A DNA stretch of 64,000 nt from a virus (lineage: Duplodnaviria > Heunggongvirae > Uroviricota > Caudoviricetes): IMG/VR virus record IMGVR_UViG_2939121850_000001; one strand, given 5' to 3'. Below the pieces are notes generated by a model, which saw nothing but the letters and a program-made list of their open reading frames with translations, made no database searches and was not told the origin of the DNA. How positions within the stretch are numbered: the stretch's first letter is position 1; every line of letters starts with the position of its first letter. The position numbers and the translations under genes were made by a program. This document shows, piece by piece, positions 1 to 60,222 of the stretch.

Positions 1-201
1 ATTGAATATCTCAATAACGTAATGGATATGCAAAGAACTGACATGGCGGAGATCCGTAACGCCCGGGGCAATGTCCGGGAAGCGATTGCAGCCCTTCAGG
101 CTGCCGGACGTTTTGAGGAAAACGAAGAGCTGGTTAACGGAGCAGCTCGCCACCTGGCTGATCTGTTGGTAGCAATCCAGAAAGCGGGGGTAGCGGCATG
201 A
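1..201 (+). CDS. 3' end of a dar-operon gene (DarA-like), truncated by window edge
   Basis: Open frame from position 1 to TGA 199-201; stop overlaps ATG of next gene; position upstream of ddrA/ddrB. Confidence 0.4.
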   Translation: MEYLNNVMDMQRTDMAEIRNARGNVREAIAALQAAGRFEENEELVNGAARHLADLLVAIQKAGVAA

Positions 202-563
202 CACTATCAGCTATTGAGTTAATGGATCTCAGCGATAAGTTGGATGTTCTGATGTCTAAAGCGGCGACCGCGAGTGGCATGGAGTTGCTGGATATCAGCG
301 ATGAAATTGACCAGATCATGCAACAGATGGGGTACGGCGCGTCCGGCGGTGGTAGTGGCGAGGAAAAACAACCTTCGGAACATGATGGTGTGCCAAAACT
401 GGTTGCTGATTTCCTGGCTGATAAATTCGCCGATCAGAGCACCGATGCATTTATCGGTACCTTGCAGGACTTGAGTCAATATGTTGGCACATACATCGAC
501 CTGGACCAGGTTAAACAGCACACGGCGGCATGGATAGCCGCCAACATTAAAGAGGCAGCATAA
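198..563 (+). CDS. ddrA: DdrA-like small dar-operon protein (121 aa)
   Basis: 121-aa ORF coupled to flanking dar-operon ORFs; name by synteny with P1. Confidence 0.5.
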   Translation: MTLSAIELMDLSDKLDVLMSKAATASGMELLDISDEIDQIMQQMGYGASGGGSGEEKQPSEHDGVPKLVADFLADKFADQSTDAFIGTLQDLSQYVGTYIDLDQVKQHTAAWIAANIKEAA

Positions 564-575
564 GGCGTAACAGGG

Positions 576-3563
576 ATGAGCTTAAGCGATCAGGTGGTAA
601 TGGCCACCAGCATAGAAACGCTGATCGAGCTGCTAAAGAACCTGCCCGATTATGGGCGGGTTTCGTATGTGGTGACAGCGAAGGGAGACGAGGTAAAAAC
701 AGCGTTTGATATCGTCGATGCCTCAGCTCTTTTGGTATCCAATACTCTGGATGGGAAAATTAATCCTGACTATCCCCAGGAACTTCAGCCGCGCGACCGG
801 ACCCGCGCATCCAGCCTTCTTCAGGTTAACCAGATATCCAAAGATTTGCGGCCTGCTCAGCTTACTGATTCCGGTTTATCCAGCCATGGCGCGCCGATAA
901 TTGGTGAGGACAATGCCGTTGAGTCAGGTAATGGACGGACCATGGGGATCATCAAAGCCTATCAGGACGGTAATGCGGATCGGTATCGGGAGTACCTGAT
1001 TGAACATGCGACCGAATTCGGCATACGGCCTGAAAAGGTTGAATCAATGACGGCTCCGGTACTGGTGCGCCGCCGGTTAACGAAGGTTGACCGTGTTCAG
1101 TTTGCCAAGGACTCAAATATTTCTGATCTCCAGGAAATGGCAGCCAGTGAAAAGGCTTTTGTTGATGCCGACAGCATAACACCGGCGATGATGGCGTTGT
1201 TTAACCCGTCAGAAAGCGGAGATCTGCTTAGCCGCAGTAATGACGCGTTTATTCGCGGATTCATGACGCAAGTTGGTGCCACACAGGCGGCTGGCCTTGT
1301 AACTGAAGATGGGCGACCAACACGGCAACTTGTTGACCGTATACAAAACGCGATCTTTGCCAAGGCATATAAGGATGCGCGCCTGGTAAGGATGGTTGCA
1401 GAAGAACCTGATCCGGATATGCGTAATGTTCTGACGGCGCTTAATGCGGCAGCCAATGATTTTGTCCAGATGCAGGCTTTATCAGGAGAAGCGCACAAGC
1501 AGGCTGTGACAACTATTGTTGATGGCATTGAGACAGCGGATAGCCTCGATAAAAAGGCGCTGGCGGCATTGAAAGATGCGGTAGACCTGGTAAGGCAATC
1601 GAAGGAGTCAGGCCAGCATATTACCGATGTTATTGCTCAGGGGGATATGTTCAGCGAAACGGCCCCGGAAGTGAAAGCACTCGCGTTGTTCATCGTCGCG
1701 AATAACCGTAGCGCGAAGCGTATGGCCACCGCCTTTAAGTTGATGGCGCAACGTATCAATGATGAGTTACAGCACCAGGGCCAGGCGCTCGGGGATATGT
1801 TTGGCGGCGGCGATGTGTCGTTACAGGATATCCTTCGCCAGGTGTCTCAGGAACTGGAATACGAAGGCATGCAAGGGATATCCGGCGGTCTTTTCGAGTC
1901 CGTTTCCGGCGGTAGTTACAACGGTGTTGCTCCGTATACCAGTTTGCTATTACATCGGGCATCCGGCATCAAAGACATTATTCATCTGATCAGGCTGCTT
2001 TCCCGCACAGATCCCCAGGATGAACAGCTTGTACAAGTGCTTGCGCATTTTGTTCGAATGCCTGTTGCCGACGTGAAAAAATGGTGCCGATTATTCGGTA
2101 TCAGCAATTCGTTACTTCGCGGCTTGTTAAATCACGCATCCTCCCTTGGGCGCGATGGCTTTGACGAGATAGCGCAGGCGATAAAAAACGGAGATATGCC
2201 ACCAGCTATTGACTGGTTTTCCATTCGCCCAACCAGGGTGAAAGCATTCCTTAGCGCGGCGCATTTGGCATCACCATTGGCAGAAATGGTTCAGAGGTTG
2301 TCGCTCATATTCACAGACCATACCGCGTTGGGTGATCTGACTCTGGACGAGATGAAAGAAGCCTCCATTCAGTGGGCCGATCAACAAAATGAGGTTAACT
2401 CAGACTTCTTGCCAGCATTCAGGAAGGCCGTTAGTAAAGCGGATGATGCCCGTGGAATTCTGAAGGCATTTAAGGCATTGCAAAGTCGTGTTAATAAACA
2501 TGTCGGTGATATCGATGGGGTAACGGCGGAAGGCCGGGATATCCTTCAAGAGCACGGCATAACGCCAGAGTTTATTGATGAGATCAGGACTGATATGCAG
2601 CGTGAGGTCGTATCGTCCCTGCAAATCGTAGCCAGAGCGTTGGCGGATGCTAATCCGAAGAGTGCGGCCATTGTTAACCGGGTTATTGGTGATATTGAAG
2701 CATCGGAGGGCATGGGGGCGCTGAAACTCTTCCTTTCGCGAGCGTTTAATCCTAACGGCAATATTCTCCCTGGCATTATTGGTGAGGCTAAAAAGTATGT
2801 CAGTGAAGAAGAACTTGAGCAGCTTGACCAACTACTTAAGCGATTCTCATATAACCCGCAGACACGCTGGCAAATGAATCAGCGAAGTATGGGTTCGGTC
2901 CACGAGAAAGTGTTATCTGCCATGAACAGTGCGATCGCCAACTCATCCGTATCTGAAGAAAAAGCTCTTGAGTGGGCCGACTCTTTTATCACGGAAGAAG
3001 TGGAAGAAGCCCGCGCTGGACAGAATGGTGGGATAAACCTGCGCAAGGAACTTGCTGATATTTATCGCCTGACTGGCGGGAAAATATCGACCTTATCAAA
3101 GGTGGTTCACCACCAGGGAAGGGCATATGCAAATCTAAATGGTGTTGTTGCTGTCAATTTGAACGATGAAAATGCAAGTGCACTGTGGCACGAGCTGGGT
3201 CATCATCTTGAGTACAGTAACCCCGGTTTGTTAGAGAAAGCCCGGTCATTCCTGAAGGCCAATGTTGAAGGGGGTAAGCCATCTTTCGTCAATATCGGTG
3301 GGCGTGGCAAGCCTGAATGGTGCTTCAGATCTCGATTGAGTAATATTTATATGGCGAAGGTATACCCGCCAGTCTCAGTGAGTAACTCCGGGAAAATTCG
3401 GCAGAAATCACCGACTATTTCCAAAACGTCAGCAACGGAAGTATTCTCTATGGCTCTTCAGTTGTATCATGACAAAGAGGCCGCTGCCGCATCACTGATG
3501 AATGGTGACGGATTGCTGGAACTGTTATTAGGTGTGGCAAAGGAGCTAAATAATGCAGATTAA
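576..3563 (+). CDS. ddrB: DdrB-like large dar-operon virion protein (995 aa)
   Basis: 995-aa ORF between ddrA-like ORF and ssb region; size and position match P1 ddrB as recalled. Confidence 0.55.
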   Translation: MSLSDQVVMATSIETLIELLKNLPDYGRVSYVVTAKGDEVKTAFDIVDASALLVSNTLDGKINPDYPQELQPRDRTRASSLLQVNQISKDLRPAQLTDSGLSSHGAPIIGEDNAVESGNGRTMGIIKAYQDGNADRYREYLIEHATEFGIRPEKVESMTAPVLVRRRLTKVDRVQFAKDSNISDLQEMAASEKAFVDADSITPAMMALFNPSESGDLLSRSNDAFIRGFMTQVGATQAAGLVTEDGRPTRQLVDRIQNAIFAKAYKDARLVRMVAEEPDPDMRNVLTALNAAANDFVQMQALSGEAHKQAVTTIVDGIETADSLDKKALAALKDAVDLVRQSKESGQHITDVIAQGDMFSETAPEVKALALFIVANNRSAKRMATAFKLMAQRINDELQHQGQALGDMFGGGDVSLQDILRQVSQELEYEGMQGISGGLFESVSGGSYNGVAPYTSLLLHRASGIKDIIHLIRLLSRTDPQDEQLVQVLAHFVRMPVADVKKWCRLFGISNSLLRGLLNHASSLGRDGFDEIAQAIKNGDMPPAIDWFSIRPTRVKAFLSAAHLASPLAEMVQRLSLIFTDHTALGDLTLDEMKEASIQWADQQNEVNSDFLPAFRKAVSKADDARGILKAFKALQSRVNKHVGDIDGVTAEGRDILQEHGITPEFIDEIRTDMQREVVSSLQIVARALADANPKSAAIVNRVIGDIEASEGMGALKLFLSRAFNPNGNILPGIIGEAKKYVSEEELEQLDQLLKRFSYNPQTRWQMNQRSMGSVHEKVLSAMNSAIANSSVSEEKALEWADSFITEEVEEARAGQNGGINLRKELADIYRLTGGKISTLSKVVHHQGRAYANLNGVVAVNLNDENASALWHELGHHLEYSNPGLLEKARSFLKANVEGGKPSFVNIGGRGKPEWCFRSRLSNIYMAKVYPPVSVSNSGKIRQKSPTISKTSATEVFSMALQLYHDKEAAAASLMNGDGLLELLLGVAKELNNAD

Positions 3564-3861
3564 AATCGCAGCGCCATTAGGCGGAGATGCCATTATCGAA
3601 TTTGATGATAATGAAGAAGTTTCCGGGCGTTTAAGCATTATCTCCGGTGACATTACCGAGGACATGATCGCTGAAGCCATAGCTGGAGCAAATCCCAATA
3701 GCTATATGGGATTCGTTAACACCCTTGATGCTCCCGCAAGTGATGTTCTCCGAACGCTGCATCTTTACGCTGGCTGGTTTGTTGATTGGCCAGCAGTAGA
3801 TGGTGGCGATGAGGACGACGACGATGATTTTGGTGATCATGTAGACCAGATCGTATATTGA
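3553..3861 (+). CDS. hypothetical acidic protein (102 aa)
   Basis: ORF overlapping ddrB stop; D/E-rich C-terminus; ends just before hairpin terminator. Confidence 0.45.
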   Translation: MQIKIAAPLGGDAIIEFDDNEEVSGRLSIISGDITEDMIAEAIAGANPNSYMGFVNTLDAPASDVLRTLHLYAGWFVDWPAVDGGDEDDDDDFGDHVDQIVY

Positions 3862-3864
3862 AGA

Positions 3865-3893
3865 AATCCCGCCAATCGGCGGGATTTTTTTTT
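3865..3893. terminator. bidirectional rho-independent terminator
   Basis: Stem aatcccgcc / ggcgggatt with T-run, between convergent ORFs. Confidence 0.6.
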
Positions 3894-4854
3894 AATCGCT
3901 TTCCACTTCTTCCGTAGTGTTTTCTTGCAGTTCTGTTAATGCAGCACGACACAGGCTCCGGGCATTGGCTATAGCCACACTTTTGACTTCATCCGTCATC
4001 GTGCAGGTAATGTACTGATCGAGTTCTTCAGCGCGGATGATGCTTTTGCCAATCAGAAACTGTATTTGCCAGAGCAGATCAGCATCCATAATCAGAATTT
4101 CTGCCGGGCCTTCAGGACCAGCCGGGAAGGAAACATAAGACTGTTTGCCCAGGCCGATAACTCGACAACTTGCTTCAAGAATTGCGCGATTGAGGTCTGA
4201 CTTTGTAACTGATACAGGTTGATTTTCACCTGCGATTACGCCGTTGACATGGATGTGGAATGGCATGTAGCTTGAAATTCGCTCTACTTTCCATACGCCA
4301 GCAAGCGATCCTTCATGCAGCACAATGGGGGTAACCGCGAGTTTCATCTCACCATATAACTGCTGGCAGATAGCTGGATTGCTGAATACATCCAAAGGTT
4401 CACACTCAAACAGCGGCGCAATCTGTATGAGGTCCATCATGGTCATACCAGGGGTACGAGCAGTAATGAATCTGCGCATGCCAGTATCCATTGTGCGCCA
4501 GATAGCTACACCATGCTTTTTGCTCACTTCTTCAGTAAAGCCAAGGTGGCACATGATGGTTTTTTCGATAGCCAGATCAGAGATAGAAACCTTTTCGCCA
4601 GGTACACCATCATTATTGATGGTCACTTCGACACTCTGGCCATTACGCAGGCGGTATTGAATTGTTTTAGTATTTTGTGCTGTCATAGTCTTTTCTCTGC
4701 TTAAAAACTGATGTATTGCGCCTTCAGGTGGGTCAGGAATGTTTTCCCACCAGCGAAAGCAATATCTCGGGGTGTTCTTTTCGTGAAAAGCGCGTGCCAT
4801 TGCCAACTTTGGCGTTTTTTTGCGAGTTCGTGCTTTTGTCGGCGTCTTGACCAC
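3892..4854 (-). CDS. hypothetical protein; start uncertain (possibly Met57 at 4686)
   Basis: 320-aa ORF between ssb and dar operon; no IS1 nearby unlike P1. Confidence 0.5.
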   Translation of the reverse strand: MVKTPTKARTRKKTPKLAMARAFHEKNTPRYCFRWWENIPDPPEGAIHQFLSREKTMTAQNTKTIQYRLRNGQSVEVTINNDGVPGEKVSISDLAIEKTIMCHLGFTEEVSKKHGVAIWRTMDTGMRRFITARTPGMTMMDLIQIAPLFECEPLDVFSNPAICQQLYGEMKLAVTPIVLHEGSLAGVWKVERISSYMPFHIHVNGVIAGENQPVSVTKSDLNRAILEASCRVIGLGKQSYVSFPAGPEGPAEILIMDADLLWQIQFLIGKSIIRAEELDQYITCTMTDEVKSVAIANARSLCRAALTELQENTTEEVESD

Positions 4855-4888
4855 CGCTTTTCTTTCAGTCGTTTTTTACTCATAAACT

Positions 4889-5377
4889 CTAAAACGGAAT
4901 ATCGTCGTCAAAGTCCATTGGAGGTTCGTTATTGGCGTTGCTCTGAGGTTTACCGCCACCACTGTATTGCTGGTGGTTTTGAGGTTGGTTTGATTGCCCC
5001 CAGCCATTTGAGGACTGTGAATCGTCACGGCGAGCGCCGATCATTTGCATGGTGCCGCCCTGGCTGACGATAATTTCCGTCGTGTAACGTTCTACACCGA
5101 CGTCATCTGTCCACTTACGGGTTTTAAGTTTCCCTTCGATGTAGACCTGAGAACCTTTTCGTAAATACTCACTCGCAATTTCAGCAAGTTTTCCGAACAA
5201 AACGACTTTATGCCATTCTGTCTGCTCTTTCTGTTGGCCCGTTTGCTTGTCGCGCCATGATTCATTCGTTGCGATGCTGAGTCTTCCGACAGCGCCGCCA
5301 TTTGGTATATACCTGATCTCCGGGTCTTGCCCCAGGGTACCAATCAGGATGACTTTGTTTACACCGCGTTGTGCCAC
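4889..5377 (-). CDS. ssb: single-stranded DNA-binding protein
   Basis: 162 aa; OB-fold N-terminus, Gly/Gln-rich linker, acidic C-terminal tail DFDDDIPF. Confidence 0.9.
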
Positions 5378-5396
5378 TTATCTTACCTAATAAAAT

Positions 5397-5413
5397 AAAA
5401 TGATTAGAGCAAT
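5397..5413 (-). promoter_or_regulatory. C1 operator-like site (15/17 match)
   Basis: aaaatgattagagcaat is reverse complement of ATTGCTCTAATcAtTTT; in ssb/lyz divergent intergenic region. Confidence 0.55.
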
Positions 5414-5546
5414 AATGTATATCTTTGAAACGTAGCTAACAAGTGATTTGCATTATCCTGTGCCTTCTAAAGGGATCGAGTCAGTCGGTATTGACTGTGA
5501 ATGGGTATTTGTCCTGGAGCGTAAAAAATTCGCTTATGAGGTCTTT

Positions 5547-6104
5547 ATGAAGGGAAAAACAGCCGCAGGAGGCGGTGCAATTTGCGCTATCGCGGTGATG
5601 ATTACCATCGTGATGGGTAATGGCAATGTGCGAACCAACCAGGCGGGGCTTGAGCTTATCGGAAACGCGGAAGGTTGCCTACGTGATCCATACATGTGCC
5701 CGGCGGGTGTATGGACTGACGGGATTGGTAATACACATGGGGTAACGCCAGGCGTGCGAAAAACCGACCAGCAAATCGCCGCTGATTGGGAAAAGAATAT
5801 CCTGATCGCTGAACGCTGTATTAATCAGCACTTCCGGGGCAAAGACATGCCCGATAATGCCTTCAGCGCAATGACAAGCGCGGCATTCAATATGGGATGC
5901 AATAGTTTACGGACCTACTACAGCAAAGCGCGAGGCATGCGAGTCGAAACGTCCATCCACAAGTGGGCGCAGAAAGGGGAATGGGTGAATATGTGTAACC
6001 ATCTCCCTGATTTTGTGAACAGTAACGGCGTCCCCCTGCCCGGGTTAAAGATTCGCCGTGAAAAAGAACGCCAGCTTTGCCTGACGGGGCCGGTCAATGA
6101 ATAA
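5547..6104 (+). CDS. lyz: SAR endolysin (lysozyme)
   Basis: 185 aa from Met34 of the ORF with RBS gagg; N-terminal Gly/Ala-rich SAR segment; lysozyme catalytic motif EGCLRDPYMCPAGVWTDGIGNT. Confidence 0.85.
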   Translation: MKGKTAAGGGAICAIAVMITIVMGNGNVRTNQAGLELIGNAEGCLRDPYMCPAGVWTDGIGNTHGVTPGVRKTDQQIAADWEKNILIAERCINQHFRGKDMPDNAFSAMTSAAFNMGCNSLRTYYSKARGMRVETSIHKWAQKGEWVNMCNHLPDFVNSNGVPLPGLKIRREKERQLCLTGPVNE

Positions 6105-6351
6105 ACTCCGGCAGCTCCGCCGACTTTCGACAATGAAGTTATCGCTGGCGGCGATAGTTTTCGACTCGATTTTCATGGCGGTATATGTGCTCAATGAGAC
6201 GTGGCCACTGGAACCGCTATTGTATGCTGGGCTTCGGCTGTGCCTGACATTTTTGAGCATGGCTGCAAGATTGATGCAGCAGAAAGAAACCGCTTCAGAT
6301 TGTCCACGCCGCGCGGTGCGCAAATATATGGCACGCAGACGAAGGCGATAA
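6097..6351 (+). CDS. small membrane protein with poly-Arg C-terminus (holin-like), coupled to lyz
   Basis: ATG overlaps lyz stop; hydrophobic helices; C-terminus ARRRRR; followed by terminator. Confidence 0.4.
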   Translation: MNKLRQLRRLSTMKLSLAAIVFDSIFMAVYVLNETWPLEPLLYAGLRLCLTFLSMAARLMQQKETASDCPRRAVRKYMARRRRR

Positions 6352-6362
6352 TAGTTAACGAG

Positions 6363-6390
6363 AACCCCGGCAGCCGCCGGGGTTATTTTT
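6363..6390 (+). terminator. rho-independent terminator after lyz operon
   Basis: aaccccgg / ccggggtt hairpin followed by TTTTT. Confidence 0.6.
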
Positions 6391-6395
6391 GGTGG

Positions 6396-9126
<2,731 letters not shown>

Positions 9127-9192
9127 TTAATTAGAATAATTCACATCGTGTTTGAACGGAATTTAACACTAGTCACTTGTTAAGGATTACCA

Positions 9193-9812
9193 ATGAACAA
9201 GCTATCTATGGGGGTGTTTCGCTGTTCAAGTGTCAGCGAAATATTGAAATACATTAGGGCAATAACATCTCACCGAGCGCCGATTAAATATGGCGTGGAA
9301 AAGGTGGAAGGCAAAAGCTATGACCGACTGCGCCGGGAGGCGAATCAGAAGGCGATAGATTTGCTTAATTCGCTGGTGGACGGCGCGACACTGACAGATG
9401 AACAGCGCCAGATCCTGGCTGGGTACACCGGTGAAGGCGGCATTGGCGGGTCCGTCTCCGAATATTACACACCAAAGCCGATCGCTGAAGGTGTCTGGGA
9501 GATCATGAAGCTCTACGGCGCGGACGTAGGTAACACTCTGGAACCATCGGCGGGAACCGGCGTTTTTAATGAGACAAAACCGGTTGGTACGGTGATGACC
9601 GCGACTGAGATCAGCAGTGTTTCCGGTCGTATAAACCAGTTGTTACACCCGGAAGACAGCGTACAGATTTCCCCGTTCGAACAGCTGGCTGTAAGCACGC
9701 CTAACGATTCATTCGACCATGTTGTGGGTAACGTTCCGTTCGGCGGTCGTGATAACACACGCAACATCGATAAGCCTTACGCAGAAGAAACGGACATGGG
9801 TTCTTACTTCAT
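9193..9812 (+). pseudogene. darB: darB 5' fragment (N-terminal methyltransferase region), cut by IS insertion
   Basis: SAM-binding motif EPSAGTGVF and GNVPFG motif; frame continues exactly into 13052 ORF once the insertion and one TSD copy are removed. Confidence 0.85.
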
Positions 9813-12800
9813 GGGGTTCTAGGGATTTTCCGTCCAAAAACGACAAAGTGCTCTGGAGGCCGCGCCGTCCGTGGCCTCCAGAGGGGTATTACTTTTCGCT
9901 GACGGGTAAATATCCCTCGATTGAGCGCATAAGCTCCTCCAGATCTGGCAATTTTTCGCTCAATTCGAAGTGGTAAGTCCCCTTGAGGTTAATGTTGTGC
10001 CAGGCCACAGGGGATGCCTGTTTGACGATATCTATTCTCTTGGTATCTCCTTGGTATTCGAAGCTGGTCAACAGCTGGCTGAGTATCCTGGAGTTGAAGT
10101 AAACGATGGCATTGGTGACCAGGCGAGCGCACTCATTCCATAGCTGGATTTCTTCGTCTGAACTGCCCCGGAACTGATCCCCATTGACGCTGCTCACGGC
10201 CCGACGCAGTTGGTGATAGGCCTCTCCCCGGTTCAGCGCGCGCTGAACATAGTTTCTTAAACTGGCATCATCGATGTAGCACAGTAGATAATTCGCTTTC
10301 ACCAGGCGATTGTATTCCGTCAGGGCTTCCAGCAGCGGGTGATTGCGCTTGTACTCCGAGAGCTTTCTCACCAAGGTGGCTTGCGTTGTTTTCCGCTGCT
10401 TAAGTGATACTGCAATCCGTTGGATGGTATCCCAGTGCTGCGCAATACGATGGGTATTGATTGGCTTTTTTAAGCACAGCTGAATTCGGTGTTCTTTGTC
10501 TTCCTTGACATCAAACATGTCATTGATCACTTTGCCAACCTGGGCATAGCGTGGGGCAAACTGGTATCCGAACAGATCCAGTAACGCGAAGTTCACATGG
10601 TTCACCCCATGGGTATCGGTTGAGAGCACATCCGGAATGATGTCTGACGTATTGCTCATCAACAAATCAAAGATGTAGTGCGATTCATGTTCGTTGGCGC
10701 CGATCACTCTGGCGTTGATCGCAGCGTGATTGGCGATCAAGGTCATGGCAGAAACACCTTTTTGAGTGCCAAAGTACTTCGACGAATAACGGGTTTTGAA
10801 GGTCTCGCGCCGGGCTTCGAACTTTTGACCATCGGCACTGGCGTGGATCACATCTTCCTGGATGTTGTAGTACCGGAAGATGGGTAGCTTGGCTGTCGCG
10901 TTATTGATGTTGTCGTTAGCAGCATTCAATGTTTCCAGGCGAAGATAGTTCGCCTGGATAGTGCTGAGCTGATCATAGGTACGATCAGAGATCTGTGCCA
11001 TGCCGTAAATGCCTTGATTGGTTGCATTGCCGACCAGAATTGCCAACAGGTCATATTCATGGGAACGGCTTCTGGATTGGGAACCCAGCACATGAGCGAA
11101 GCAGTCAATGAAACCGGTGTCACGATCAACCATGCGCAGTACATCCGCAATCCCCGTTGTGGGAATTTGCTGGAAGAAGGGATTGTTGACCAGATGATGT
11201 TTGCTGGCCGAAGGCAGGCGCCAGAAGCGTTTACCCTGCGGATTACGCAAGATGATATTCCGGTTGTCTTCCTGTTCAAGATATTCGCCGACTTCGTACA
11301 AACGGGTATCCAATTCCATGGCCATCTGTTTGATCAGCTTTTCAGGCTCCTCCGCTAATTTTGTAAAATGGCTCTGTTGAAGCAGCGTATATTTGTTTTT
11401 TCGCCAATGTTCCCCGTCGATCAGGTCGGCGTCGAGTGCCCGGTATTTAGTGATATCAGGCAGCGTCAGCTGGCCATTCAGGCGATCAGGAATCTGTTGA
11501 TAGAGGAACCACTCATAACGATCGATCAGGATATTCCCTTCACCATCCAGCAGGAATTCACGTGATTTTTTGGAAAGGAGTCTGGTGTCGGCAGTTTGCA
11601 ACTGAGCGTCCTGGCCGTTGAGTTCGTTTTGTGTTTTCGCCAAGGCGGCCGCTAAGTGCTGGGTGCCGTCGCAGCCTTCGAAGCGCAGACATAGGAACAA
11701 CTCTCGCAGCAAACCTTTCCGCAGACTTTCTTTCTCGTCGCAGTACTGCCACATGGCTTCATCGACCGATCGTCGCTGCTCGTTCAGGAAGAGACATACA
11801 GATTCCAGATCCCTTTTGGTCAGCAGGCTCAGTGCTTGCTGTCTTACTGTTGCAAACGGTAGTTGCAGATCAATGCTGTCATCAATGAACAGGTGCAGTA
11901 CTTCAGCTGCCTTGCTGACATTTTTAGCTGCTTTTTGCCAATCCTTAAACACCGCTTCCTGCGCATAATCCTTTGCCTTCTGTTTGGTCTGTCTGACATG
12001 ATGCACAAAGCCATCGGCAATACGTTCCAGCGCTTGCTGCCATCGCGTTTGAAGATAGCACAATAAATACAGCCATTGGCTGCCTACGGTTTGACGTTTC
12101 AGTTTGGCACCGTAGTAGTCGACTTTCTCTGCCAGGTGTTGCAGATTTTTCTGCGACAGTGATAGCGTGCTCAACAGCAGATCCACTTCCGGCATCCAAT
12201 GCTGGATATGGCGATAGACAATCAGTTCTTTCTCCAACTCGGTTCCGGTGAAGTTACGAGCCGATTGTCGCAACTGTCGGAACGGCAGTGGACCTGTGCC
12301 GTTCACGAGCTCCGCCAGTGCTTGCTTAAGACCGCGTGACATTGCACGCTCAAGGTGCGCGGCCATGTGTTCCTGTTCGTCTCCCACCACCTGACTGATG
12401 ATCTTTTGCAGCGTGCTGTAGGCAGGGATTGCGATCTTCTGCCCCGAACAATATTCATTGGCCGCATCGAAGAGGTGCCTAGGCGCTGTCCAGGCTCTGG
12501 CTTGCTGGGATAAGTAATCTCTCAACGCCGCTCCATGGTCTTTGACATTCCAGCGCTGGTAGTTGCAGAGCTGGAAAACACGTTGGTAAATCCGTTCGTT
12601 CTCTTTTGGCGTGAGATTAAAGGGTCTACAGCCTGGGCCTGGTAGAACGGTTTGATAAACGTATTTGAGGTCCTGCTTGATCTGATGAAAGCCGGGATTC
12701 AGCACCACCGGCTTGGCTTTGAAATAGCCCAGCAGTACCACCAGCATGTAACGCTGGCCCCGATGACGGAGGCTTTTAGCGATCGCCAGTTCCTTATCGT

Positions 12801-13048
12801 TCAGCGAGAAAAAGAAGCGTTGGTCGGCGGAGGTGAAAGCGGGGGGTCCATATAACTCATCTTGTTCTGCCTCGGACAAGATTTGGACACGTTCTTCGAA
12901 TGCCATGGATTTAGCCCAAAAAGACTAAATCTTACTCAAACAGAGCCCAAATAGGGATCTCGAAAAAAGTAATACCCCTCTGGAGGCCACAGACGGCGGG
13001 GCCTCCAGAGCACTTTGTCGTTTTTGGACGGAAAATCCCTAGAACCCC
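9813..13048 (-). mobile_element. Tn3-family insertion sequence (tnpA only), 3236 bp
   Basis: Terminal inverted repeats starting GGGGTTCTAGGGATTTTCCGTCC, about 75-90 bp with few mismatches; 5-bp direct repeat TTCAT at 9808-9812 and 13049-13053; single 1005-aa transposase. Confidence 0.85.
9889..12906 (-). CDS. tnpA: Tn3-family transposase TnpA (1005 aa)
   Basis: Size typical of Tn3-family TnpA; sits between long IRs; DTHG-containing C-terminal region. Confidence 0.8.
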   Translation of the reverse strand: MAFEERVQILSEAEQDELYGPPAFTSADQRFFFSLNDKELAIAKSLRHRGQRYMLVVLLGYFKAKPVVLNPGFHQIKQDLKYVYQTVLPGPGCRPFNLTPKENERIYQRVFQLCNYQRWNVKDHGAALRDYLSQQARAWTAPRHLFDAANEYCSGQKIAIPAYSTLQKIISQVVGDEQEHMAAHLERAMSRGLKQALAELVNGTGPLPFRQLRQSARNFTGTELEKELIVYRHIQHWMPEVDLLLSTLSLSQKNLQHLAEKVDYYGAKLKRQTVGSQWLYLLCYLQTRWQQALERIADGFVHHVRQTKQKAKDYAQEAVFKDWQKAAKNVSKAAEVLHLFIDDSIDLQLPFATVRQQALSLLTKRDLESVCLFLNEQRRSVDEAMWQYCDEKESLRKGLLRELFLCLRFEGCDGTQHLAAALAKTQNELNGQDAQLQTADTRLLSKKSREFLLDGEGNILIDRYEWFLYQQIPDRLNGQLTLPDITKYRALDADLIDGEHWRKNKYTLLQQSHFTKLAEEPEKLIKQMAMELDTRLYEVGEYLEQEDNRNIILRNPQGKRFWRLPSASKHHLVNNPFFQQIPTTGIADVLRMVDRDTGFIDCFAHVLGSQSRSRSHEYDLLAILVGNATNQGIYGMAQISDRTYDQLSTIQANYLRLETLNAANDNINNATAKLPIFRYYNIQEDVIHASADGQKFEARRETFKTRYSSKYFGTQKGVSAMTLIANHAAINARVIGANEHESHYIFDLLMSNTSDIIPDVLSTDTHGVNHVNFALLDLFGYQFAPRYAQVGKVINDMFDVKEDKEHRIQLCLKKPINTHRIAQHWDTIQRIAVSLKQRKTTQATLVRKLSEYKRNHPLLEALTEYNRLVKANYLLCYIDDASLRNYVQRALNRGEAYHQLRRAVSSVNGDQFRGSSDEEIQLWNECARLVTNAIVYFNSRILSQLLTSFEYQGDTKRIDIVKQASPVAWHNINLKGTYHFELSEKLPDLEELMRSIEGYLPVSEK

Positions 13049-16000
13049 TTCATGCTCCGCATGCTGGACAAAATAAAGACAGGCGGATTCATGTGCGTGA
13101 TTGTGCCGCCGTCCATTGTTTCAGGTTCAAACATGAAGCGGTTACGCCTGCGCCTATCACGGAAAGCTGAATTTCTTGGTGCCCACCGCCTGCCTACCGG
13201 TACTTTTGACGCAAACGGGACCAGTACGGTCGTAGATGTGGTGCTGATGCGCAAACATCCGGCAGAGATGGCTGAGAAAATCCCCCTGGTGGATGAAAGC
13301 ACTCTTGAATCGGCAAATGTGCTTTGGCCAACGTTTATTTCTGGCAAGTGGTTTGAAAAGGATGGCCGCCGGTTTGTTCATGGCACCCAGGAAAAGGGCT
13401 TCCAGGGGCGTATTGAGGTTCGTGCCGACGGTCAGATTGATAACCAGGCTCTTAAAGCGAAGCTGATTCATCGTTTCGAAAGCCGTATCGACTGGTCTTT
13501 GCTCGATATGGCTGAACCGTCACCGACCGCAGACGTTGTTGGTGAAGGGGAAATGCGCCTGATTAATGGCGTATGGCAAAAATATGCTGGTGGTCGCTGG
13601 ATTGAAGCTGATGCCGGGAAGGAACTTAAGATCGATGCTGCCAGTTATGGCGCGGATAGCTGGGAGGCTCTTCAGCGTAACCTGACTACAACAGAAGGCC
13701 GTCTCGGCATGACATTTACCCAGATGGCAAATGTCCGCGATAAGTACACCACATCAATCAGCGACGATATGGTGCAGCTGGTGGACTGGATTAACAGCCA
13801 GCCTGAAAAATACCGTGAACGCTTGTATCGCGGGGCGATGATTGGCCGGATGTTAATTGAATATCAGGACATGAAGGCCGCCGGGCATAGTGCTGAACAA
13901 ATCGAACAGCAGCGCCTTTCTCTGGTATCCCGTTTGCAGGCAGAGATTGACCGTTTTGGTAACCCCGGTCGCGGTCCGATAGCGAAATTATCGGGGAGCG
14001 GTGCGCGCGCCTGGTTTGCTTTCCGTGGTGCAATTAAGCTGGATGGCACTATTTCTGACGAGCTGACAGGAAAGCTGGTTACGCATGATTCCAGCGCAAG
14101 TTATGACTCCACCAGCTATCAGGACACCCTGCGTTATCTCTACAGTGATCTCACTCGCGATCCAATCCAGCTCGATGATTTCCGCCTTGCGTTTACCGGC
14201 GAACTGCCAGCCAGTGATGAAGAGTTGCTTAATTTATTGGCCAGCACCCCTGGTATTGCGGTTTCACCGTATGGCGGGATTGTTCCGTTCGCCCGCGCCA
14301 CCAGCGGCGACATTAACGAGATAGTGGCTCCAAAACAGGAATTCCTCGCCACGCTCCCCGACGGTCCAGTAAAGAACAACGTCCTTAATCAGCTGGCAGC
14401 GATCGAAGAGAAGCGCATCAAGACGCCAGCAGAGAATATCCGGTTTAAGCTCAATAGCCGTTGGTTCGACCGTTCCGTCATTCTGGAATTTTTGCAGGAA
14501 AACGGCTATCCGGATCTGCGCTATGTGCAGTCAGTGCAGCTTGAAGGCGACGAAATGGTTTCTGACACCTATCACGGTGGTGATGGTCTGTTCGTCGGGC
14601 ACCGATACGGTGTCGTCCAGCGCAAGGATAAAGAAACAGGCGAGATCCGCTACGAGTGGGACCGTAAATCAGGTGAAAACGCGACCGGGTTCCCGGCACA
14701 GCTGGAAAAGTATCTCAATGGTGCGCGTATCGGTGGCAAAGATAGCGCGACGGCGAACGGCTACCGCGAGCAGATGGCACTGCTTGAGGACCAGTTCAAT
14801 AAGTGGATCAAGACGCACGATCGCTACGATGAGCTGGTTGCCAAATACAACGATGTTTTCAATAGCAATATCCCGTATGAACACTCTGGCGATCCGCTTG
14901 GGTTGAAGGGATTAAGCGGTAAGCGACAGCCATTTGATTACCAGAATAGCGAGGTGCGCCGACTGTCCGAAGATGGGCGCGGCATCCTGGGCTTCGGTAC
15001 CGGGCTGGGTAAAACCACGACCGCGCTGGCGCTTGAGGCGTTCAACTATGAGAACGGTCGTTCCACCCGTACTGCGTATGTAGTGCCTAAATCAGTGCTG
15101 GAAAACTGGTATTACGAAGCAAAAGAGTTTCTGAGTGAAGAGGCATTCAGTAACTACCTGTTCGTCGGTCTTGATGTGCTGATGGATGGCGATCAGATTC
15201 GCCAGGTGCCGGTGCTCGATGAGAACGGTAAACCTGTCGTTGGTGCAGATGGCACTCCCGTTATGCGCGATGCCCTTAAGCTGGCAGATGAAGCCACTAT
15301 CACGGCGCGGATGAACGCGATCCCGCACTCAAACTACCGTGCAGTCGTGTTTACCAAAGAACAATACGCCCGCATTCCGCTACGTGATGACACCGTAGAT
15401 GAGCATGCACAAGACATGCTTTATGACTTCGTTGCTGCCGGGCGTGTGGCCAGCGCAATGGACTCCGATTCCCATCGCAAAGAGGCGGCGCGTCGCCGGG
15501 TATTGTCGGAGTATTCAGATACCGGTACCGAAAAAGCAGAGAAGTATCCGTACTTTGAGGATATGGGCTTCGACAGCGTGATTGCTGACGAAGGCCACAA
15601 CTACCGCAATAGCTATAAAAATGGTCGCGAAGCGTCACAGCTGGCCTATCTGCCCACCAGCGCGGTGGCGCAATCGGCGCGAGATATGGCAATCAAAAAC
15701 GCGTACCTGATGAAAAAGAATGGTGGGCGTGGACCGGTTCTCCTGACTGCAACGCCAGTCGTTAACACCCCGATCGATGCATACAACATGCTTTCTCATG
15801 TTCTGCCGAAGGAATACTGGCAGAAGATGGGGATCTACGGTCCTGATGACTTCGTTAAATTCTTCGGCAAGACCAGGCTGGAAACGGTACAGAAAATCAG
15901 CGGTGAAGTTGAAGAAAAAATGGCGCTGGTGGGCTTTGAAAACCTTGATGCGCTGCGCGGCATATTCCATCGCTGGACAACGCTTAAAACGGCGGAAGAC

Positions 16001-19000
16001 GTTAAGGATACCGTGGAGATCCCGGAACTGGACGAACACCAGCAGGATGCACCACTTACTGAAGAACAACTGGCGGCGTATGAAGAATTGCGTCAACAGG
16101 CGGAAGCGGCAGCAAAAGCCAACAATGGCGTAACGACCTCGGTTAATGAAGACGGCGTGATTGAGCACGAGAAAGCCCGTCCGATCTTCTCAATAATCAG
16201 GGATATGGACCGCGTATGTACTGACATGGACCTGTACTATCGCCGGATCACCTATCGTTTCCTGCCGGAGTACGCCGATGCGGTGCAGCAGCTGGCGGAC
16301 AGTTTGCCTAAACAAGCCACCAGCGAAGACGACGACAGTGATGATTCAATCACGCAGCAATCGCAATACTCCCTGATAGATAAGGGCGAGTTTATTCAGT
16401 TGCAGGTTCCGGAAGCGTTCGAGCAGGAAGTGAATAAGCGCCTGGCCAAGTTTGGCATTGACGAACAGACCGTAACTCACCCCGTTACGCCCAAATACGT
16501 GAAGCTGATTGCCACGCTGAAGGAGTTTTTCCCGGAAGGGAAGCAAATCATCTTCACCGACGAAAAAACGCAGCACCAGAAGCTCAAGCGCATTATCTGC
16601 AATGCTCTTAACCTTGAACCTTCAAAGGTGGGGATCCTGAATGCTCAGACGGTTGCCGAGGCAGGTAAAACCGGTAAGAAACTGAAAGCGGTTAAACCGC
16701 CGAAAGAGTTACCGGATGAACCAACAGATGCACAGATAGCGAAATACAACGAGCAAATGGCTCTGTATGACGCCTATATCGCGCAGCAGAATGAAATGTC
16801 GTTGGGCGGTCTGGAAAAGATTGCAGCCGACTTCCAGGAGGGCCGGACTCCGATCATCATCTGCAACAAAAAGGCAGAGGTGGGTATCAACCTGCATCGA
16901 GGAACGACTGACATCCATCATCTGACGTTGCCATGGACACCAGCCAGTATCGCACAGCGTAACGGTCGCGGTGCCCGAGTTGGCTCCAACCGTGCAAGCG
17001 TTCGCGTTCACTACTACTGCGGCAAGGGTTCTTTCGATGAATACCGACTGAAGACGCTGAAGCGTAAAGCAGGCTGGATCTCCGATATCCTCCGTTCAGA
17101 TAAGTCAGAAATGGAGAACGCCGACGCCAACGATATGATCGAAATGCAGATGTATACCGCTAAGGATGATGGCGAACGTCTGGCAATGATGCAGGTTCAA
17201 ATGGATAAGGCGAAAGCCGCGCAACGCGCTCGCCAGAAAGAACAGGCTACTATCGACCTTCAGAACTACATCAAGGCGCAGCACGCAGCTGGCGAGGATG
17301 TGGAGGTACTTACCGCTGAATTAGAGCGAAGCAAAGCGGAACTTGAAAAGACCACCGCCGAGGTAGCTAAATTCAAACAGGCGGTAATGGCCAAAGCAGC
17401 TGATAACGCAGACTGGAAAGCCCGCTGGGGTAGCGTCCATCACACAGACCGTACGTTGTTAGCACAGTATCGCGCGTCGTTGAAAAGCGCCATTCAGCGC
17501 AAGGCTAATATCTCTCAAGCCATCTCCCGCTATGAGAAATTATTGAACCGTACTCAGAAGGCCGCGACGGATATCAAACGCCTGCGCCCGCTGGTGGAGG
17601 ATGCAATAAATAAAGGCATTCTGGATGTTGATCCTGACCTGGTTAACCATGCGAGTGAGTTCCTTGTTATCGGCGATCGCTCATGGCGTGTAGGCCAATA
17701 CTACGATTGTGCCGGTGATATCGTTCGCATTAAGTCGCTGGACTTCGACAGCCAGCGCGCAGACGTGGAGATTATCTTTACCTTCAAAGGTACCAAATCG
17801 GGTAACTGGGATGTGAAGACGCTGGATAAACAGGTTGATGTAACTCCCGATGAAGATGCTGTTATGCAGAAAATCAGTGGTGGCGTCTCCATCGCCGGGA
17901 TTAACGACATCATTTCCTGTGACGATTTCTACCGTTTCCAGCAGCGCGGCATGATCAAAATCACTGACTCATACGGCGTTCAGACTACAGAGTCAGGCTA
18001 TAGCATCGATTTTGTTGGTACCTATACGGACCCACTGAAGCATGCGGTTTACCCGGATCGCCGTGACGGCGCGCTGAAGTCGTCAATTGCAAAATGGGTG
18101 CTTGGTATGATGTCGGAAGGGAATAACCGCCAGATCCGTTCGGCAGAAACATTCCTGGTTGAACTGTTTGGCTCCAATTATGGCGATGTAATCGCGTCAT
18201 ACGGAGATACGCTATCCCCTGAAGCAATTCAGGAGAAAATAGCGGATGCGATCGCCAGAATGCCGGAAAAAACAAGCCAGGGGGCTACTCGTAACGGGGA
18301 TTCTGAACTTGAAGTCACCAATGCCATTTTCGGTACCAATGAGTTCCGGGCGTCAGATTATGAGATCACCACAGCACAGTTTGGCACCATTGGCATTTAC
18401 AGCAATAAAGACGAGATCAAACAGTCAATGGACGCTGCAAGCGCGCGCATTGCAGCAGAACGCAAAGCCAATCTGAATCATGCAGTTTCCGCGCTGACTC
18501 AATCGTGGGTAACAGCAATCAGGGAGGCCGCCACCACAGGAAAAATCACACCGGCAATTGCGGATGTCGTAAACGACGGCTCTAAATTTATGGATGCCTA
18601 TAAAATGGATGCGGTGCAGTTGCCATCAGCCTATGGTCAACTCAGCTATCGCATGACCTACAACCTGGTATCAATGTTTTCCGACCTTGCCATCCTTGGG
18701 CTGGTGGATCTTAACGAGGTTACGCCGGAATTGCTCAGCATGCGCAAGAATCATGTGGAGATATTGCAGAGAATTAACACGGTTCTTGCCGGGCGCACCG
18801 ATGAAGAGAAACAGGCCGACGCTGATCGGATAAACCTGGCCCTTGGCAACATCACGGAGGAAGAGATTGCCGCCAGAAACGAGAAACAAGAAGAGTTATC
18901 ATCAATACAGGGTGATGCCACCAGCATAGCTCAGTCTCTTGGTCTGAATTATCGCGTATCCACCGCCGACCTGAAGATGATGTACGCACCAAAATTCGCC

Positions 19001-19201
19001 GCTGGCGAGGTATTTGGGCTTCAGGAAGCCTCAGGCATGAAAGGCGTTCTTTTCCGTGCGAAAGACGCAATCAAGGCGAAATTCGGCGCTCGCTGGCTGC
19101 CAGCGAAGGCGAAGAACAGCGATTTCCCGGGTAACTGGTGGATTATCGAGACAAAACACAACGTGGCGGACGTTCTGGCCGTCATCCAACAATACGCATA
19201 A
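13049..19201 (+). pseudogene. darB: darB 3' fragment (helicase-containing body, 2049 codons)
   Basis: Helicase Walker A GFGTGLGKTT; 206 + 2049 codons = 2255 aa, the size recalled for P1 DarB. Confidence 0.85.
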
Positions 19202-19234: not shown

Positions 19235-19675
19235 ATGGCCACACTATCTGATACAATAAAACCGAATAAAACATATCTTGAGGCGGTACTCCGTACAGCG
19301 TTGTTAGGAAAGACAGAAGACGAATACGTTGATTTCTTCCTGTCAGGGCTACGCGGGCGATTACTGAAAAATCCCCGCCTGTACCGCAGCTATGGCCCAT
19401 ACTGGCCGGAAATTAAAAAATTATTACTGGAGCGCGGTTATGGTAATTTCGGTCGTCTCGTTGACCGTGACGTTCGCAAAATTTACCGTTATGACCGCCC
19501 GGCGCTGACGCTCATAGCTGCGACGCTCTACAGCCAGGAGCGTTTTGATAATGGTCAGATATACTCAGCCTGGCATTTACTGCCAGTGCCTGAAGAGGTT
19601 GACGACCAGGACTATGAGTTTGAGTCTTACGATTTGGAAGTTGAAGCCTTGGCACAGGCTGGAGAGAAAACTTGA
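19235..19675 (+). CDS. ulx: Ulx-like protein (146 aa)
   Basis: ORF between darB and lxc; named by synteny. Confidence 0.5.
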   Translation: MATLSDTIKPNKTYLEAVLRTALLGKTEDEYVDFFLSGLRGRLLKNPRLYRSYGPYWPEIKKLLLERGYGNFGRLVDRDVRKIYRYDRPALTLIAATLYSQERFDNGQIYSAWHLLPVPEEVDDQDYEFESYDLEVEALAQAGEKT

Positions 19676-19920: not shown

Positions 19921-19956
19921 TTTATCGGGCAGTTTTATCTGCCCGATAAATTTTTA
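19921..19956. terminator. hairpin terminator between convergent lxc and SIR2-like gene
   Basis: Perfect 13-bp stem atttatcgggcag / ctgcccgataaat followed by TTTTT. Confidence 0.7.
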
Positions 19957-19966
19957 TCGACCACAA

Positions 19967-21274
19967 TTACACTATATTCTTAACTATAAGGTTGGCGTCC
20001 TTCAAGGTGCCTAATGTTTCAATGTGGTTTTTTATCATTAATCTATTTGAGGCAATTATTGCAGGCCATCGTGTTTCCCAAGCTCTGTAAGCATACCAAG
20101 AAACTCCCCAATTCCTTTCTTTACTCATATGACCCATCGAGTATTCAACTGCGTCTAAATATGTTTTTTCATACTTAGTATTGCTAACCTCTATGATGCT
20201 TCCAAAATATATAAGCCATTTTGCCAACTGTTCATATTGCTCCCACGCTCCGTTATTCCTTGTTAACTTTCTCTTTTTTTCTATTATCCTTTCGAAAAGA
20301 GAAACGACTTTATCATCATTCCAATCTAAACCTTCCGATATAATTGATGATATAATTTGATAAAATGAATCCTCTAATTTAAGATATTCATTTTTATAAG
20401 TATAAGCCCCCGAAACAACTTTTCTGATATTTTCGCGCGCTCTTTCAATGATGTCTTTAATGAGAGACATCTTATAACTTAATCGACTAAAGAAACAATC
20501 TATTTCTGTATTGTCAATTACCCTTATACCAAAGCAATAGAAGTAATAATCCTTCATATCTTGACTTACTTTGTTGCGAGATATCAAAAAGATATTAGAG
20601 CACAGGGCATTATTTTTCGAAAATTTTTTATAGTCATTTATAATTGCTTTAAGATTTGTGTCGCTTAAAGAATACCCTAATATCGCAACTGTATTTTCAT
20701 GCAGCATCGTACTAAGTTTTCGTGAAAAATAAGTATCGGAATTTATAAATCTGAAGTAATCATCTGAAGTGACAATCATATTTTTTGGCGAATCAATAGA
20801 ACCATGAATATGATATATTTTCACCTTGGATGGATACTTTGGAATTGGCAGACCGGGCGTGATAGACTGTACACTTTCATCTCCAACCAAGCATTCAGCC
20901 AACTTGTCATAATTTGTTGTAATGACACGGAATGAGTTTTTTTGGAAAAAATCTTTTATATTTGATATGTCTTCTCCAAGTTGAATTGGAGATATGATGT
21001 CAACAATTTCATCATAAATCGACTTACCCTCAATATTGAGCTTCAAAGATAGTATTTGTGCGGCTTCTTCAAGACTCAGTGCTGGTGGTTTATCATCAGG
21101 GAATAACGTGTCTTCCAACTTTTTGGCATTGTGAACTTTGCTGCAAACTTTTTTTAATAGTTCCTTCCACGTTGGAGCTTCACCGTTCGAGACTGCCTTT
21201 GAAAAGCCAGTCCCGGTAAATAGACAAAGCCTGCTTGTAGCGGTAGCGTATGCTAACTCAACATATTCGCTCAT
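19967..21274 (-). CDS. SIR2-like (DHS-like NAD-binding fold) protein with uncharacterised C-terminal domain, 435 aa; candidate defence NADase
   Basis: Motifs GTGFS (21-25), TTNYD (119-123), IYHIHGS (153-159); RBS ggag; AT-rich gene in a roughly 50% GC backbone. Confidence 0.7.
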   Translation of the reverse strand: MSEYVELAYATATSRLCLFTGTGFSKAVSNGEAPTWKELLKKVCSKVHNAKKLEDTLFPDDKPPALSLEEAAQILSLKLNIEGKSIYDEIVDIISPIQLGEDISNIKDFFQKNSFRVITTNYDKLAECLVGDESVQSITPGLPIPKYPSKVKIYHIHGSIDSPKNMIVTSDDYFRFINSDTYFSRKLSTMLHENTVAILGYSLSDTNLKAIINDYKKFSKNNALCSNIFLISRNKVSQDMKDYYFYCFGIRVIDNTEIDCFFSRLSYKMSLIKDIIERARENIRKVVSGAYTYKNEYLKLEDSFYQIISSIISEGLDWNDDKVVSLFERIIEKKRKLTRNNGAWEQYEQLAKWLIYFGSIIEVSNTKYEKTYLDAVEYSMGHMSKERNWGVSWYAYRAWETRWPAIIASNRLMIKNHIETLGTLKDANLIVKNIV

Positions 21275-21330
21275 TACTTACTCCATTTACTTATAGTTCT
21301 ATGGAGAAGTATACCCTAATGCATTGACGT

Positions 21331-21999
21331 TTATAGATAATTTCCTTTTCCAGTTAACTCCCCTTTAGGCACCCGTTTTTGTGCCAGTGTTTGGGTTCCG
21401 CGAATTATGTTAATCAGAGGGCTTAGTAACGATGATTCCTGGCGGGCATCAACTTCTCCTGCCATTGCCCTAATGTAGTCGGCGCTTGCAACGTTGTTAT
21501 ATTCCGTTGCGAAGCAGCATAACAACGTCAGAACGTGCTCTGTCGTTATTTCGCTCCAGTTGATGTTGAAAAATTCATCGCCTTTTTTGTCATGTTCGGA
21601 ATCGAAGATGCTTTGGTGAAGGATGTATTTGCCGGATTCCTTGCGCGGTAACTTGATCGCTTTCTGGCGTTCCAATTCCTTGTAAATCTGCATCGCTTCA
21701 ATCAGTACCGGTCTGCCGTTCATGAAGGGATCACGCAACCTTACACGCTGGCCAACTCGACCGGTAATAAAGCTGTTTTCCTCTTCCACCAGCACGATAA
21801 AACCCTTTTCCTCTTTTTCTCGCAATTCGCGCAGCAGCTGGAGTTCCATATCGCGGCGGCGTTCAGGGTAGCTGGTCCGCTCAGCCATTATCAGCTCATT
21901 GTTGATCCATGCGGCAGTCATTGACGCCGGTTTGCCGACGCTCATCGAAACAACGCATATTTTCTTATCCATAGCGCCCCTACAAAAAAGAAAAGCCAC
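21331..21999 (-). CDS. mat: particle maturation protein Mat-like
   Basis: 222-aa ORF between ref and the res-mod slot; named by synteny. Confidence 0.5.
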   Translation of the reverse strand: MAFLFCRGAMDKKICVVSMSVGKPASMTAAWINNELIMAERTSYPERRRDMELQLLRELREKEEKGFIVLVEEENSFITGRVGQRVRLRDPFMNGRPVLIEAMQIYKELERQKAIKLPRKESGKYILHQSIFDSEHDKKGDEFFNINWSEITTEHVLTLLCCFATEYNNVASADYIRAMAGEVDARQESSLLSPLINIIRGTQTLAQKRVPKGELTGKGNYL

Positions 22000-27426: not shown

Positions 27427-27435
27427 CGCCTGGTA
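27427..27435. repeat. IS10 target-site duplication, left copy
   Basis: cgcctggta, identical to 28765-28773. Confidence 0.9.
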
Positions 27436-28764: not shown

Positions 28765-28773
28765 CGCCTGGTA
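28765..28773. repeat. IS10 target-site duplication, right copy
   Basis: cgcctggta. Confidence 0.9.
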
Positions 28774-60100: not shown

Positions 60101-60222
60101 AGAACGGCCGATGGAAAAGGCTCGATTTCAGCAAACCACGCCGGACGCATACCCAACGGTTCCCAGGCAATACTCGCGGCTTCAATTCCACTGCAAACAG
60201 ATCCATAGCACAGCTCTTTCAC
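57181..60222 (-). CDS. dmt: bifunctional DNA methyltransferase Dmt (N-terminal C5-cytosine MTase + C-terminal Dam-like N6-adenine MTase) with an in-frame intein
   Basis: C5-MTase motifs ENV and QRRRRVF, catalytic PC-QAFSIAG split by insert; Dam motifs FKWAGGK and FCDPPYEP. Confidence 0.85.
58969..59991 (-). other. intein (341 aa) with LAGLIDADG homing endonuclease domain, inserted at the C5-MTase PCQ catalytic motif
   Basis: Starts CFTAGHMV, block [17 protein letters not shown]-like [12 protein letters not shown] and [10 protein letters not shown], ends ILNGAVVHN followed by +1 Cys. Confidence 0.85.

Follow-up and report, generated by a model that had tools for sequence, protein, structure and literature searches.

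The stretch of DNA analysed here (64,000 nucleotides, referred to below as the window) covers 64 kb of a replicon of roughly 95–100 kb and carries, within what a sequence-only reading had taken to be the antirestriction gene darB, a 3236-bp insertion. This locus raises the questions of which gene has been interrupted and by what, and whether any DarB function would survive the event. The order of the genes around the insertion is that of phage P1 (ddrB, hxr, isaA, ssb, lyz, pro, prt, darB, ulx, lxc), and the features of the locus itself are collected in Table 1. Joining positions 9193–9812 to 13054–19201 produces a continuous 6768-nt reading frame, interrupted by no stop before its last codon and encoding 2255 aa, the length given by P1 darB, and so reproduces the claim that removal of the element together with one copy of the duplication fuses the 5′ fragment in frame to the 2049-codon body. 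The repaired protein differs from P1 DarB at 25 of its 2255 residues (98.9% amino acid identity, no gaps, 90 synonymous codon changes), residues 1–200 being the same in both, and this identity, with the prt-darB-ulx-lxc order, upholds the assignment of the interrupted gene to darB. The P1 annotation also places a predicted PdarB in the equivalent prt-darB intergenic position to the promoter-like site found here.

The N-terminal fragment had been described as 206 codons in length. The break does lie after codon 206, and the fragment can be refined to an open reading frame of 209 codons in which the ATG of Met207 is rebuilt with the element's initial G, residues 1–207 are those of DarB, and a TAG at 9820–9822, inside the left repeat of the element, closes the frame. 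No second copy of darB was found within the 64-kb window; as it stands, the darB of the window is a broken gene and almost certainly non-functional. When the empty site was rebuilt over 800 nt, it proved to be contiguous in P1 and in 17 other phage records at 96–99% identity, including P7, SJ46 and RCS47. The closest intact darB allele is carried by E. coli A1_181 on its IncY plasmid NZ_CP040069.1, in which the empty site is contiguous too. The insertion is evidently recent, because the repaired gene shows no decay and is separated from this intact allele by three synonymous base differences in 6768.

Table 1. Features of the interrupted darB locus, in positions of the window
Feature	Position	Strand	Basis
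Promoter-like site upstream of darB	9111..9140	+	Consensus scan, 9/12; putative function
darB 5′ fragment: residues 1–207, then Gly-Phe and TAG	9193..9822	+	Translation
Left copy of the 5-bp target-site duplication, TTCAT	9808..9812		Read from sequence
IS3000, complete copy, 3236 bp	9813..13048	- (strand of tnpA)	100% identity to annotated copies
Left terminal inverted repeat, 84 nt, with GC-rich palindrome at 9851–9883	9813..9896		Repeat pairing
tnpA, Tn3-family DDE transposase, 1005 aa, intact	9889..12906	-	Pfam, NCBIfam
Right terminal inverted repeat, 84 nt; palindrome as in the left repeat	12965..13048		Repeat pairing
Right copy of the target-site duplication, TTCAT	13049..13053		Read from sequence
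darB 3′ body, residues 207–2255: remaining methyltransferase domain and SNF2/helicase region	13052..19201	+	ORF list, Pfam
ulx, DarB-loading helper, 33 nt 3′ of darB	19235..19675	+	Position and length as P1 ulx

The inserted DNA is bounded by inverted repeats that match at 82 of 84 positions (98%), both starting with GGGG, and whose opening letters on both sides are GGGGTTCTAGGG; each read inward, the ends of the element are GGGGTTCTAGGGATTTTCC and likewise GGGGTTCTAGGGATTTTCCGTCC. The 23-nt terminal sequence occurs at two sites in the 64-kb window, these being the two ends of the element, against an expectation of 0 by chance. The sole long open reading frame is tnpA, which together with the two repeats fills the 3236 bp. 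Its product contains the Pfam domains DUF4158 (E 4.5e-29) and DDE_Tnp_Tn3 (E 1.3e-129) and scores 1000 bits against the NCBIfam equivalog NF033527 (transpos_Tn3), for which the cut-off is 500. Neither resolvase nor cargo genes were found among the open reading frames of the 3236-bp element, and five short overlapping frames in or across its left end matched no family in an NCBIfam search. Domain and ORF searches therefore agree with what had been read from the letters, a single 1005-aa Tn3-family transposase with no resolvase or cargo, and the length of the element, its long GGGG-starting inverted repeats and the TTCAT duplication were all recovered at the same coordinates. The combination of a DDE transposase of ~1000 aa, repeats of at least ~38 bp beginning with GGGG, a 5-bp duplication and a single-gene architecture is that expected of IS3000 within the Tn3 family.

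The element is specifically IS3000, with 100% identity over its full length (1–3236) to copies that PLSDB and RefSeq E. coli records annotate as 'Tn3-like element IS3000 family transposase', and the copy of IS3000 in NZ_CP022125.1 is string-identical to it. We take the annotation of this transposase to be of the WP_004199413 type. Given this full-length identity to annotated IS3000 the element is already known, and the type of event is routine; the novelty lies in the insertion site only. In PLSDB, 1886 plasmid records contain the element at 99% identity or more, and 1350 contain at least 80% of it in one place; these plasmids come mostly from Klebsiella, Escherichia and Enterobacter and are mostly conjugative. 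Among complete E. coli genomes IS3000 is present in 413 of 5426, where 1334 of its 1347 places are on plasmids. It was found in none of the 50,697 phage records of INPHARED, so that the copy described here would be the first phage-borne one relative to that collection. Other copies with the same ends are flanked by different duplications, TACTT in NZ_CP022125.1 and ACTGT in CP028181.1, and a third independent copy by the imperfect pair AAAAT/AAATT. Relatives of the terminal repeat are nearly all identical, with one 94% relative in Sphingopyxis, which is too little variation from which to judge conservation of the palindrome through compensatory changes.

The IS3000 copies that are known from pNDM-HN380-type IncX3 plasmids with blaNDM, and from the ends of Tn3000, have the same 3236 bp, the same repeats and transposase and 5-bp duplications, and the copy in the window differs from that of the IncX3 blaNDM plasmids in location only. 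Another transposase-only insertion sequence without a resolvase is IS1071, which has unusually long terminal repeats of ~110 bp. IS1071 also belongs to the Tn3 family, in which IS3000 is the name of one of the seven TnpA subgroups and IS1071 represents another (PMC7157771); the element in the window is of a different subgroup and a different sequence and is not IS1071. Taken as a whole, we put at about 90% the probability that darB of a P1-like phage-plasmid (IncY-type), in E. coli or a close relative, was hit at codon 207 by transposition of a complete, presumably active IS3000.

The consequences for DarB depend on where the protein is cut. Matches to the Pfam families N6_Mtase and Eco57I extend over residues 90–291 of intact DarB, and the break at 206/207 falls inside them, with methyltransferase motif I (EPSAGTG, residues 117–123) and motif IV (GNVPFG, residues 179–184) before the break and the rest of the domain after it; the body further contains matches to the Pfam families SNF2-rel_dom, ResIII and Helicase_C. 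Packaging of DarB into the capsid requires its residues 1–30, and these residues also suffice for it (PMC9024508); the capsid holds about 40 copies of the protein per virion (PMC9024508; PMC12810830). This capsid-targeting signal is present in the window, but on the 209-aa stub, split from the enzymatic body. DarB, Ulx and DdrB are required against EcoB and EcoK (PMC12810830; PMC9024508), and darB is non-essential for the growth of P1 (PMC10695390). On the basis of the domain position and the published truncation experiments in P1, DarB has almost certainly been inactivated by the insertion; the original proposal that DarB is probably inactive is well grounded by the break within the methyltransferase domain and the separation of the targeting signal from the helicase body. 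The stub, which retains the signal, may be loaded into heads, and the enzymatic body, from which residues 1–30 are absent, should not be loadable into the capsid. The phage should remain viable, because darB is dispensable, yet type I restriction systems of the EcoK/EcoB type should be able to act on it.

A transcript from the darB promoter would be expected to yield the 209-aa stub, a product that contains the signal for capsid targeting and one half of the methyltransferase domain. Translation would end in the left repeat, and the transcript would then meet a hairpin and 3 kb of antisense tnpA, such that the 2049-codon body and ulx would be poorly or not expressed. The hairpin predicted for the palindrome in each repeat has a folding energy of about -28 to -36 kcal/mol (for the left repeat, -33.6 to -35.9, z -2.5 to -3.2), and the GC-rich palindrome is followed, when read outward, by the T-rich tract CACUUUGUCGUUUUUGG; hairpin and tract together would probably impede transcription out of the element. 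As tnpA and darB lie on opposite strands, the tnpA promoter is directed away from the body. Promoters and terminators were sought by crude consensus scans. On the + strand, the right-hand end of the element showed no sigma-70-like sites. Within the first 300 nt of the body, the open reading frame of which starts at the native Met207 codon at 13052, none of the in-frame start codons (ATG, GTG or TTG) is preceded by a Shine-Dalgarno-like motif. The idea that the helicase body could be re-expressed from this internal Met appears weak, there being no promoter-like site and no Shine-Dalgarno motif, with residues 1–30 missing as well. The same kind of scan gave no promoter-like sites between 18300 and 19950, ahead of ulx, and ulx is probably under polarity from the insertion. 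Polarity on ulx would bring no further cost once DarB is lost.

Any body protein that was made would be without a packaging signal. With the body either unexpressed or unpackaged, virions would be without functional DarB, and the injected DNA would lose its protection from type I restriction of the EcoB/EcoK type, while DarA-dependent protection would be unaffected. We consider it very unlikely that DarB is instead split but functional, with protection still given jointly by the 209-aa stub and a 2049-aa body made by re-initiation. Such a division of labour would be helped by the Met207 ATG found in both fragments (the left regenerated by the G of the element, the right native), by a body frame that is intact with no later mutations, and by the packaging signal that the stub retains. 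It would nevertheless need expression of a body that has no promoter-like site or Shine-Dalgarno motif and lies beyond repeats with GC-rich hairpins and then T-rich tracts in the outward direction, and the product of which has been recorded by no gene caller in the public collection searched; the cut through the methyltransferase fold, moreover, leaves motif IV on one side and the C-terminal half on the other, and the body is devoid of the residues 1–30 required for capsid loading (PMC9024508).

Loss of DarB through insertion presupposes that the insertion is real. No copy of the exact junction turned up in PLSDB, complete E. coli genomes, GTDB genome contigs, IMG/VR, JGI metagenomes or phage records. 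An exact-protein look-up retrieved the 209-aa stub, called on the Logan short-read contig SRR6442662_84 (24,346 bp), which corresponds to positions 3193–9840 of the window with identity over 6648 bp and stops 28 nt into the left repeat. The left junction is thus independently confirmed by SRR6442662, whose isolate is perhaps the source strain itself or else clonally related to it. The end of the contig within the repeat, after 28 nt, points to more than one copy of IS3000 in this isolate. The 2049-aa body gave no match in the exact-protein look-up of public gene calls, and an independent record of the right junction is likewise absent there. As assemblers err at repeats, an IS3000 apparently present in several copies in the SRR6442662 data, with a contig ending in the repeat, could in principle have been misplaced in a darB that is really intact. 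A misjoin, however, would not yield a perfect 5-bp duplication whose removal restores the frame base for base, and the left junction was assembled separately in SRR6442662; an assembly artefact is, in our view, hardly credible.

For the preferred reading, transposition of IS3000 into darB, a course of events can be proposed. The donor would have been a co-resident plasmid, for which IncX3 blaNDM plasmids, the commonest carriers, are candidates. Tn3-family elements transpose replicatively via a cointegrate. IS3000 would have entered darB by this copy-in route and, because it has no resolvase, the cointegrate would have been resolved through homologous recombination of the host to leave the simple insertion flanked by TTCAT. 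Strains that hold both an IS3000 donor and a P1-like plasmid do exist: CREC-629 (NZ_CP024818 and NZ_CP024817) and CREC-532 (NZ_CP024833 and NZ_CP024832) each contain a 46-kb IS3000-bearing plasmid beside a 97-kb P1-like plasmid with this darB region.

The element might alternatively be one end of something larger, a composite transposon or an unresolved cointegrate (Tn3000-like, with blaNDM) fused to the phage-plasmid. IS3000 brackets blaNDM in the composite transposon Tn3000, which has flanking 5-bp repeats, and it mediates plasmid fusions (PMC8407110); with no resolvase, cointegrates can also persist. In the window, however, both flanks of the element are darB and abut perfectly after its removal, the two terminal-repeat matches in 64 kb are the ends of one copy, and the matching 5-bp repeats on either side fit a single-copy insertion, which makes a larger fused structure extremely improbable. 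A self-splicing intron- or intein-like insert is ruled out by the DDE transposase, the inverted repeats, the duplication and a coding strand opposite to that of darB.

The allele that results from the insertion of IS3000 can be set beside several known situations. Engineered deletions and truncations of darB in P1 were reportedly the subject of Piya et al. in 2017. In P1 mutants with engineered darB deletions or N-terminal truncations (Gonzales et al. 2022, PMC9024508), packaged DarB is likewise lost, viability is kept and sensitivity to EcoB and EcoK is expected; in contrast to these, the window holds a natural insertion-sequence allele in which a stub of 207 DarB residues still has the capsid-targeting signal. 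P1, too, has resident insertion sequences, IS1 between isaA and isaB and IS5 upstream of mod; they similarly lie in accessory parts of the genome segment in question and leave the phage unharmed, but they are outside the antirestriction genes, unlike IS3000 here. The window is without the IS1 and isaB of P1 and carries IS3000 and ISVsa5 instead. On plasmids, too, darB is frequently incomplete: of the 806 PLSDB records with matches to darB, 440 hold at least 80% of the gene, and many of the records below 80% are 5′-truncated remnants that start at nt 2800 and sit on non-phage backbones, such as that of the IncHI1B plasmid NZ_CP058713.1. The window differs from these remnants in having a clean, reversible insertion in an otherwise P1-collinear genome.

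Alone, the finding is of little weight: it is the disruption of a dispensable accessory gene by an insertion sequence that was already known. The stub with its capsid-targeting signal would be a natural counterpart of the engineered N30 fusions. It is doubtful that the insertion is more than a neutral hit, with either IS3000 gaining a virion-borne route or the loss of DarB being favoured in the plasmid lifestyle. Were the first true, a presumably inducible phage-plasmid would move IS3000 between cells and would offer 3.2 kb of homology and a transposase for fusion with IS3000-bearing blaNDM plasmids; the second would fit the many incomplete copies of darB on plasmids. The presence of IS3000, which is tied to the spread of NDM carbapenemase genes, on a phage-plasmid backbone has modest relevance to surveillance for exchange between resistance platforms and phage-plasmids. 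For the phage-plasmid itself, particles should be restricted by hosts of the EcoK/EcoB type, which would narrow its effective host range in both infection and transduction.

The 84-nt terminal repeats of IS3000, the transposase-only Tn3-family element that splits the antirestriction gene darB, each contain one GC-rich palindrome with a stem of 11–14 bp, followed in the outward reading by a T-rich tract. Given this order, the palindrome, which shows scant sequence variation between copies, may act as a terminator that insulates both ends of the element. Two plasmids retrieved from PLSDB with darB, NZ_AP025210.2 and NZ_CP149284.1, match the gene in two pieces, and the annotation of cydA/cydB (cytochrome bd oxidase) under the gap suggests a separate, cargo-bearing kind of darB disruption.

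Coordinates of the features described (nucleotide positions in the window)
Feature	Position	Strand	Details
Palindrome, first IS3000 repeat	9851-9883		GC-rich
Palindrome, second IS3000 repeat	12978-13010		GC-rich
Region replacing EcoP1 mod/res	19921-21336		
SIR2_2-domain protein ORF	19967-21274	minus	435 aa
KilAC/ANT antirepressor gene	26402-27409		
ISVsa5	27436-28764		1329 bp; IS10-like, IS4 family
ISVsa5 transposase ORF	27449-28657	minus	402 aa; DDE_Tnp_1
dmt ORF	57181-60222	minus	
Intein within dmt	~58969-59991	minus	341 aa

The dmt gene is interrupted by an intein that carries both Hint and LAGLIDADG (homing-endonuclease) domains and is absent from the Dmt of phage P1. It splits the C5-cytosine methyltransferase half of the protein precisely at the catalytic Pro-Cys motif (...GGTP/CFTAGH...VVHN/CQAFS..., slashes marking the boundaries). 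The dmt gene of NZ_CP040069.1, the IncY plasmid with the closest intact darB allele, is 3288 nt, the length expected if the intein is present there too. Where P1 has mod/res of EcoP1 together with an IS5, both the window and NZ_CP040069.1 instead carry a gene for a SIR2_2-domain protein, which is likely a defence gene.

Further departures from P1 include the absence at 3564-3892 of IS1 and isaB, which in P1 lie between hxr and isaA, so that the alignment passes straight from one to the other. Two stretches lack any nucleotide match to P1 (35402-36019 and 36364-40673); they lie within the variable region that has the pmgT-pmgV block on one side and the humD-hot block on the other, and whose counterpart in NZ_CP040069.1 holds ead/Ea22-like and DUF genes.

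ISVsa5 is the second insertion sequence in the window besides IS3000, and is flanked on both sides by the 9-bp duplication CGCCTGGTA (27427-27435 and 28765-28773). It lies downstream of an icd-like ORF and ~26 nt upstream of the KilAC/ANT antirepressor gene, in a second immunity-like locus adjoining c1, and its insertion could be polar on the antirepressor gene.
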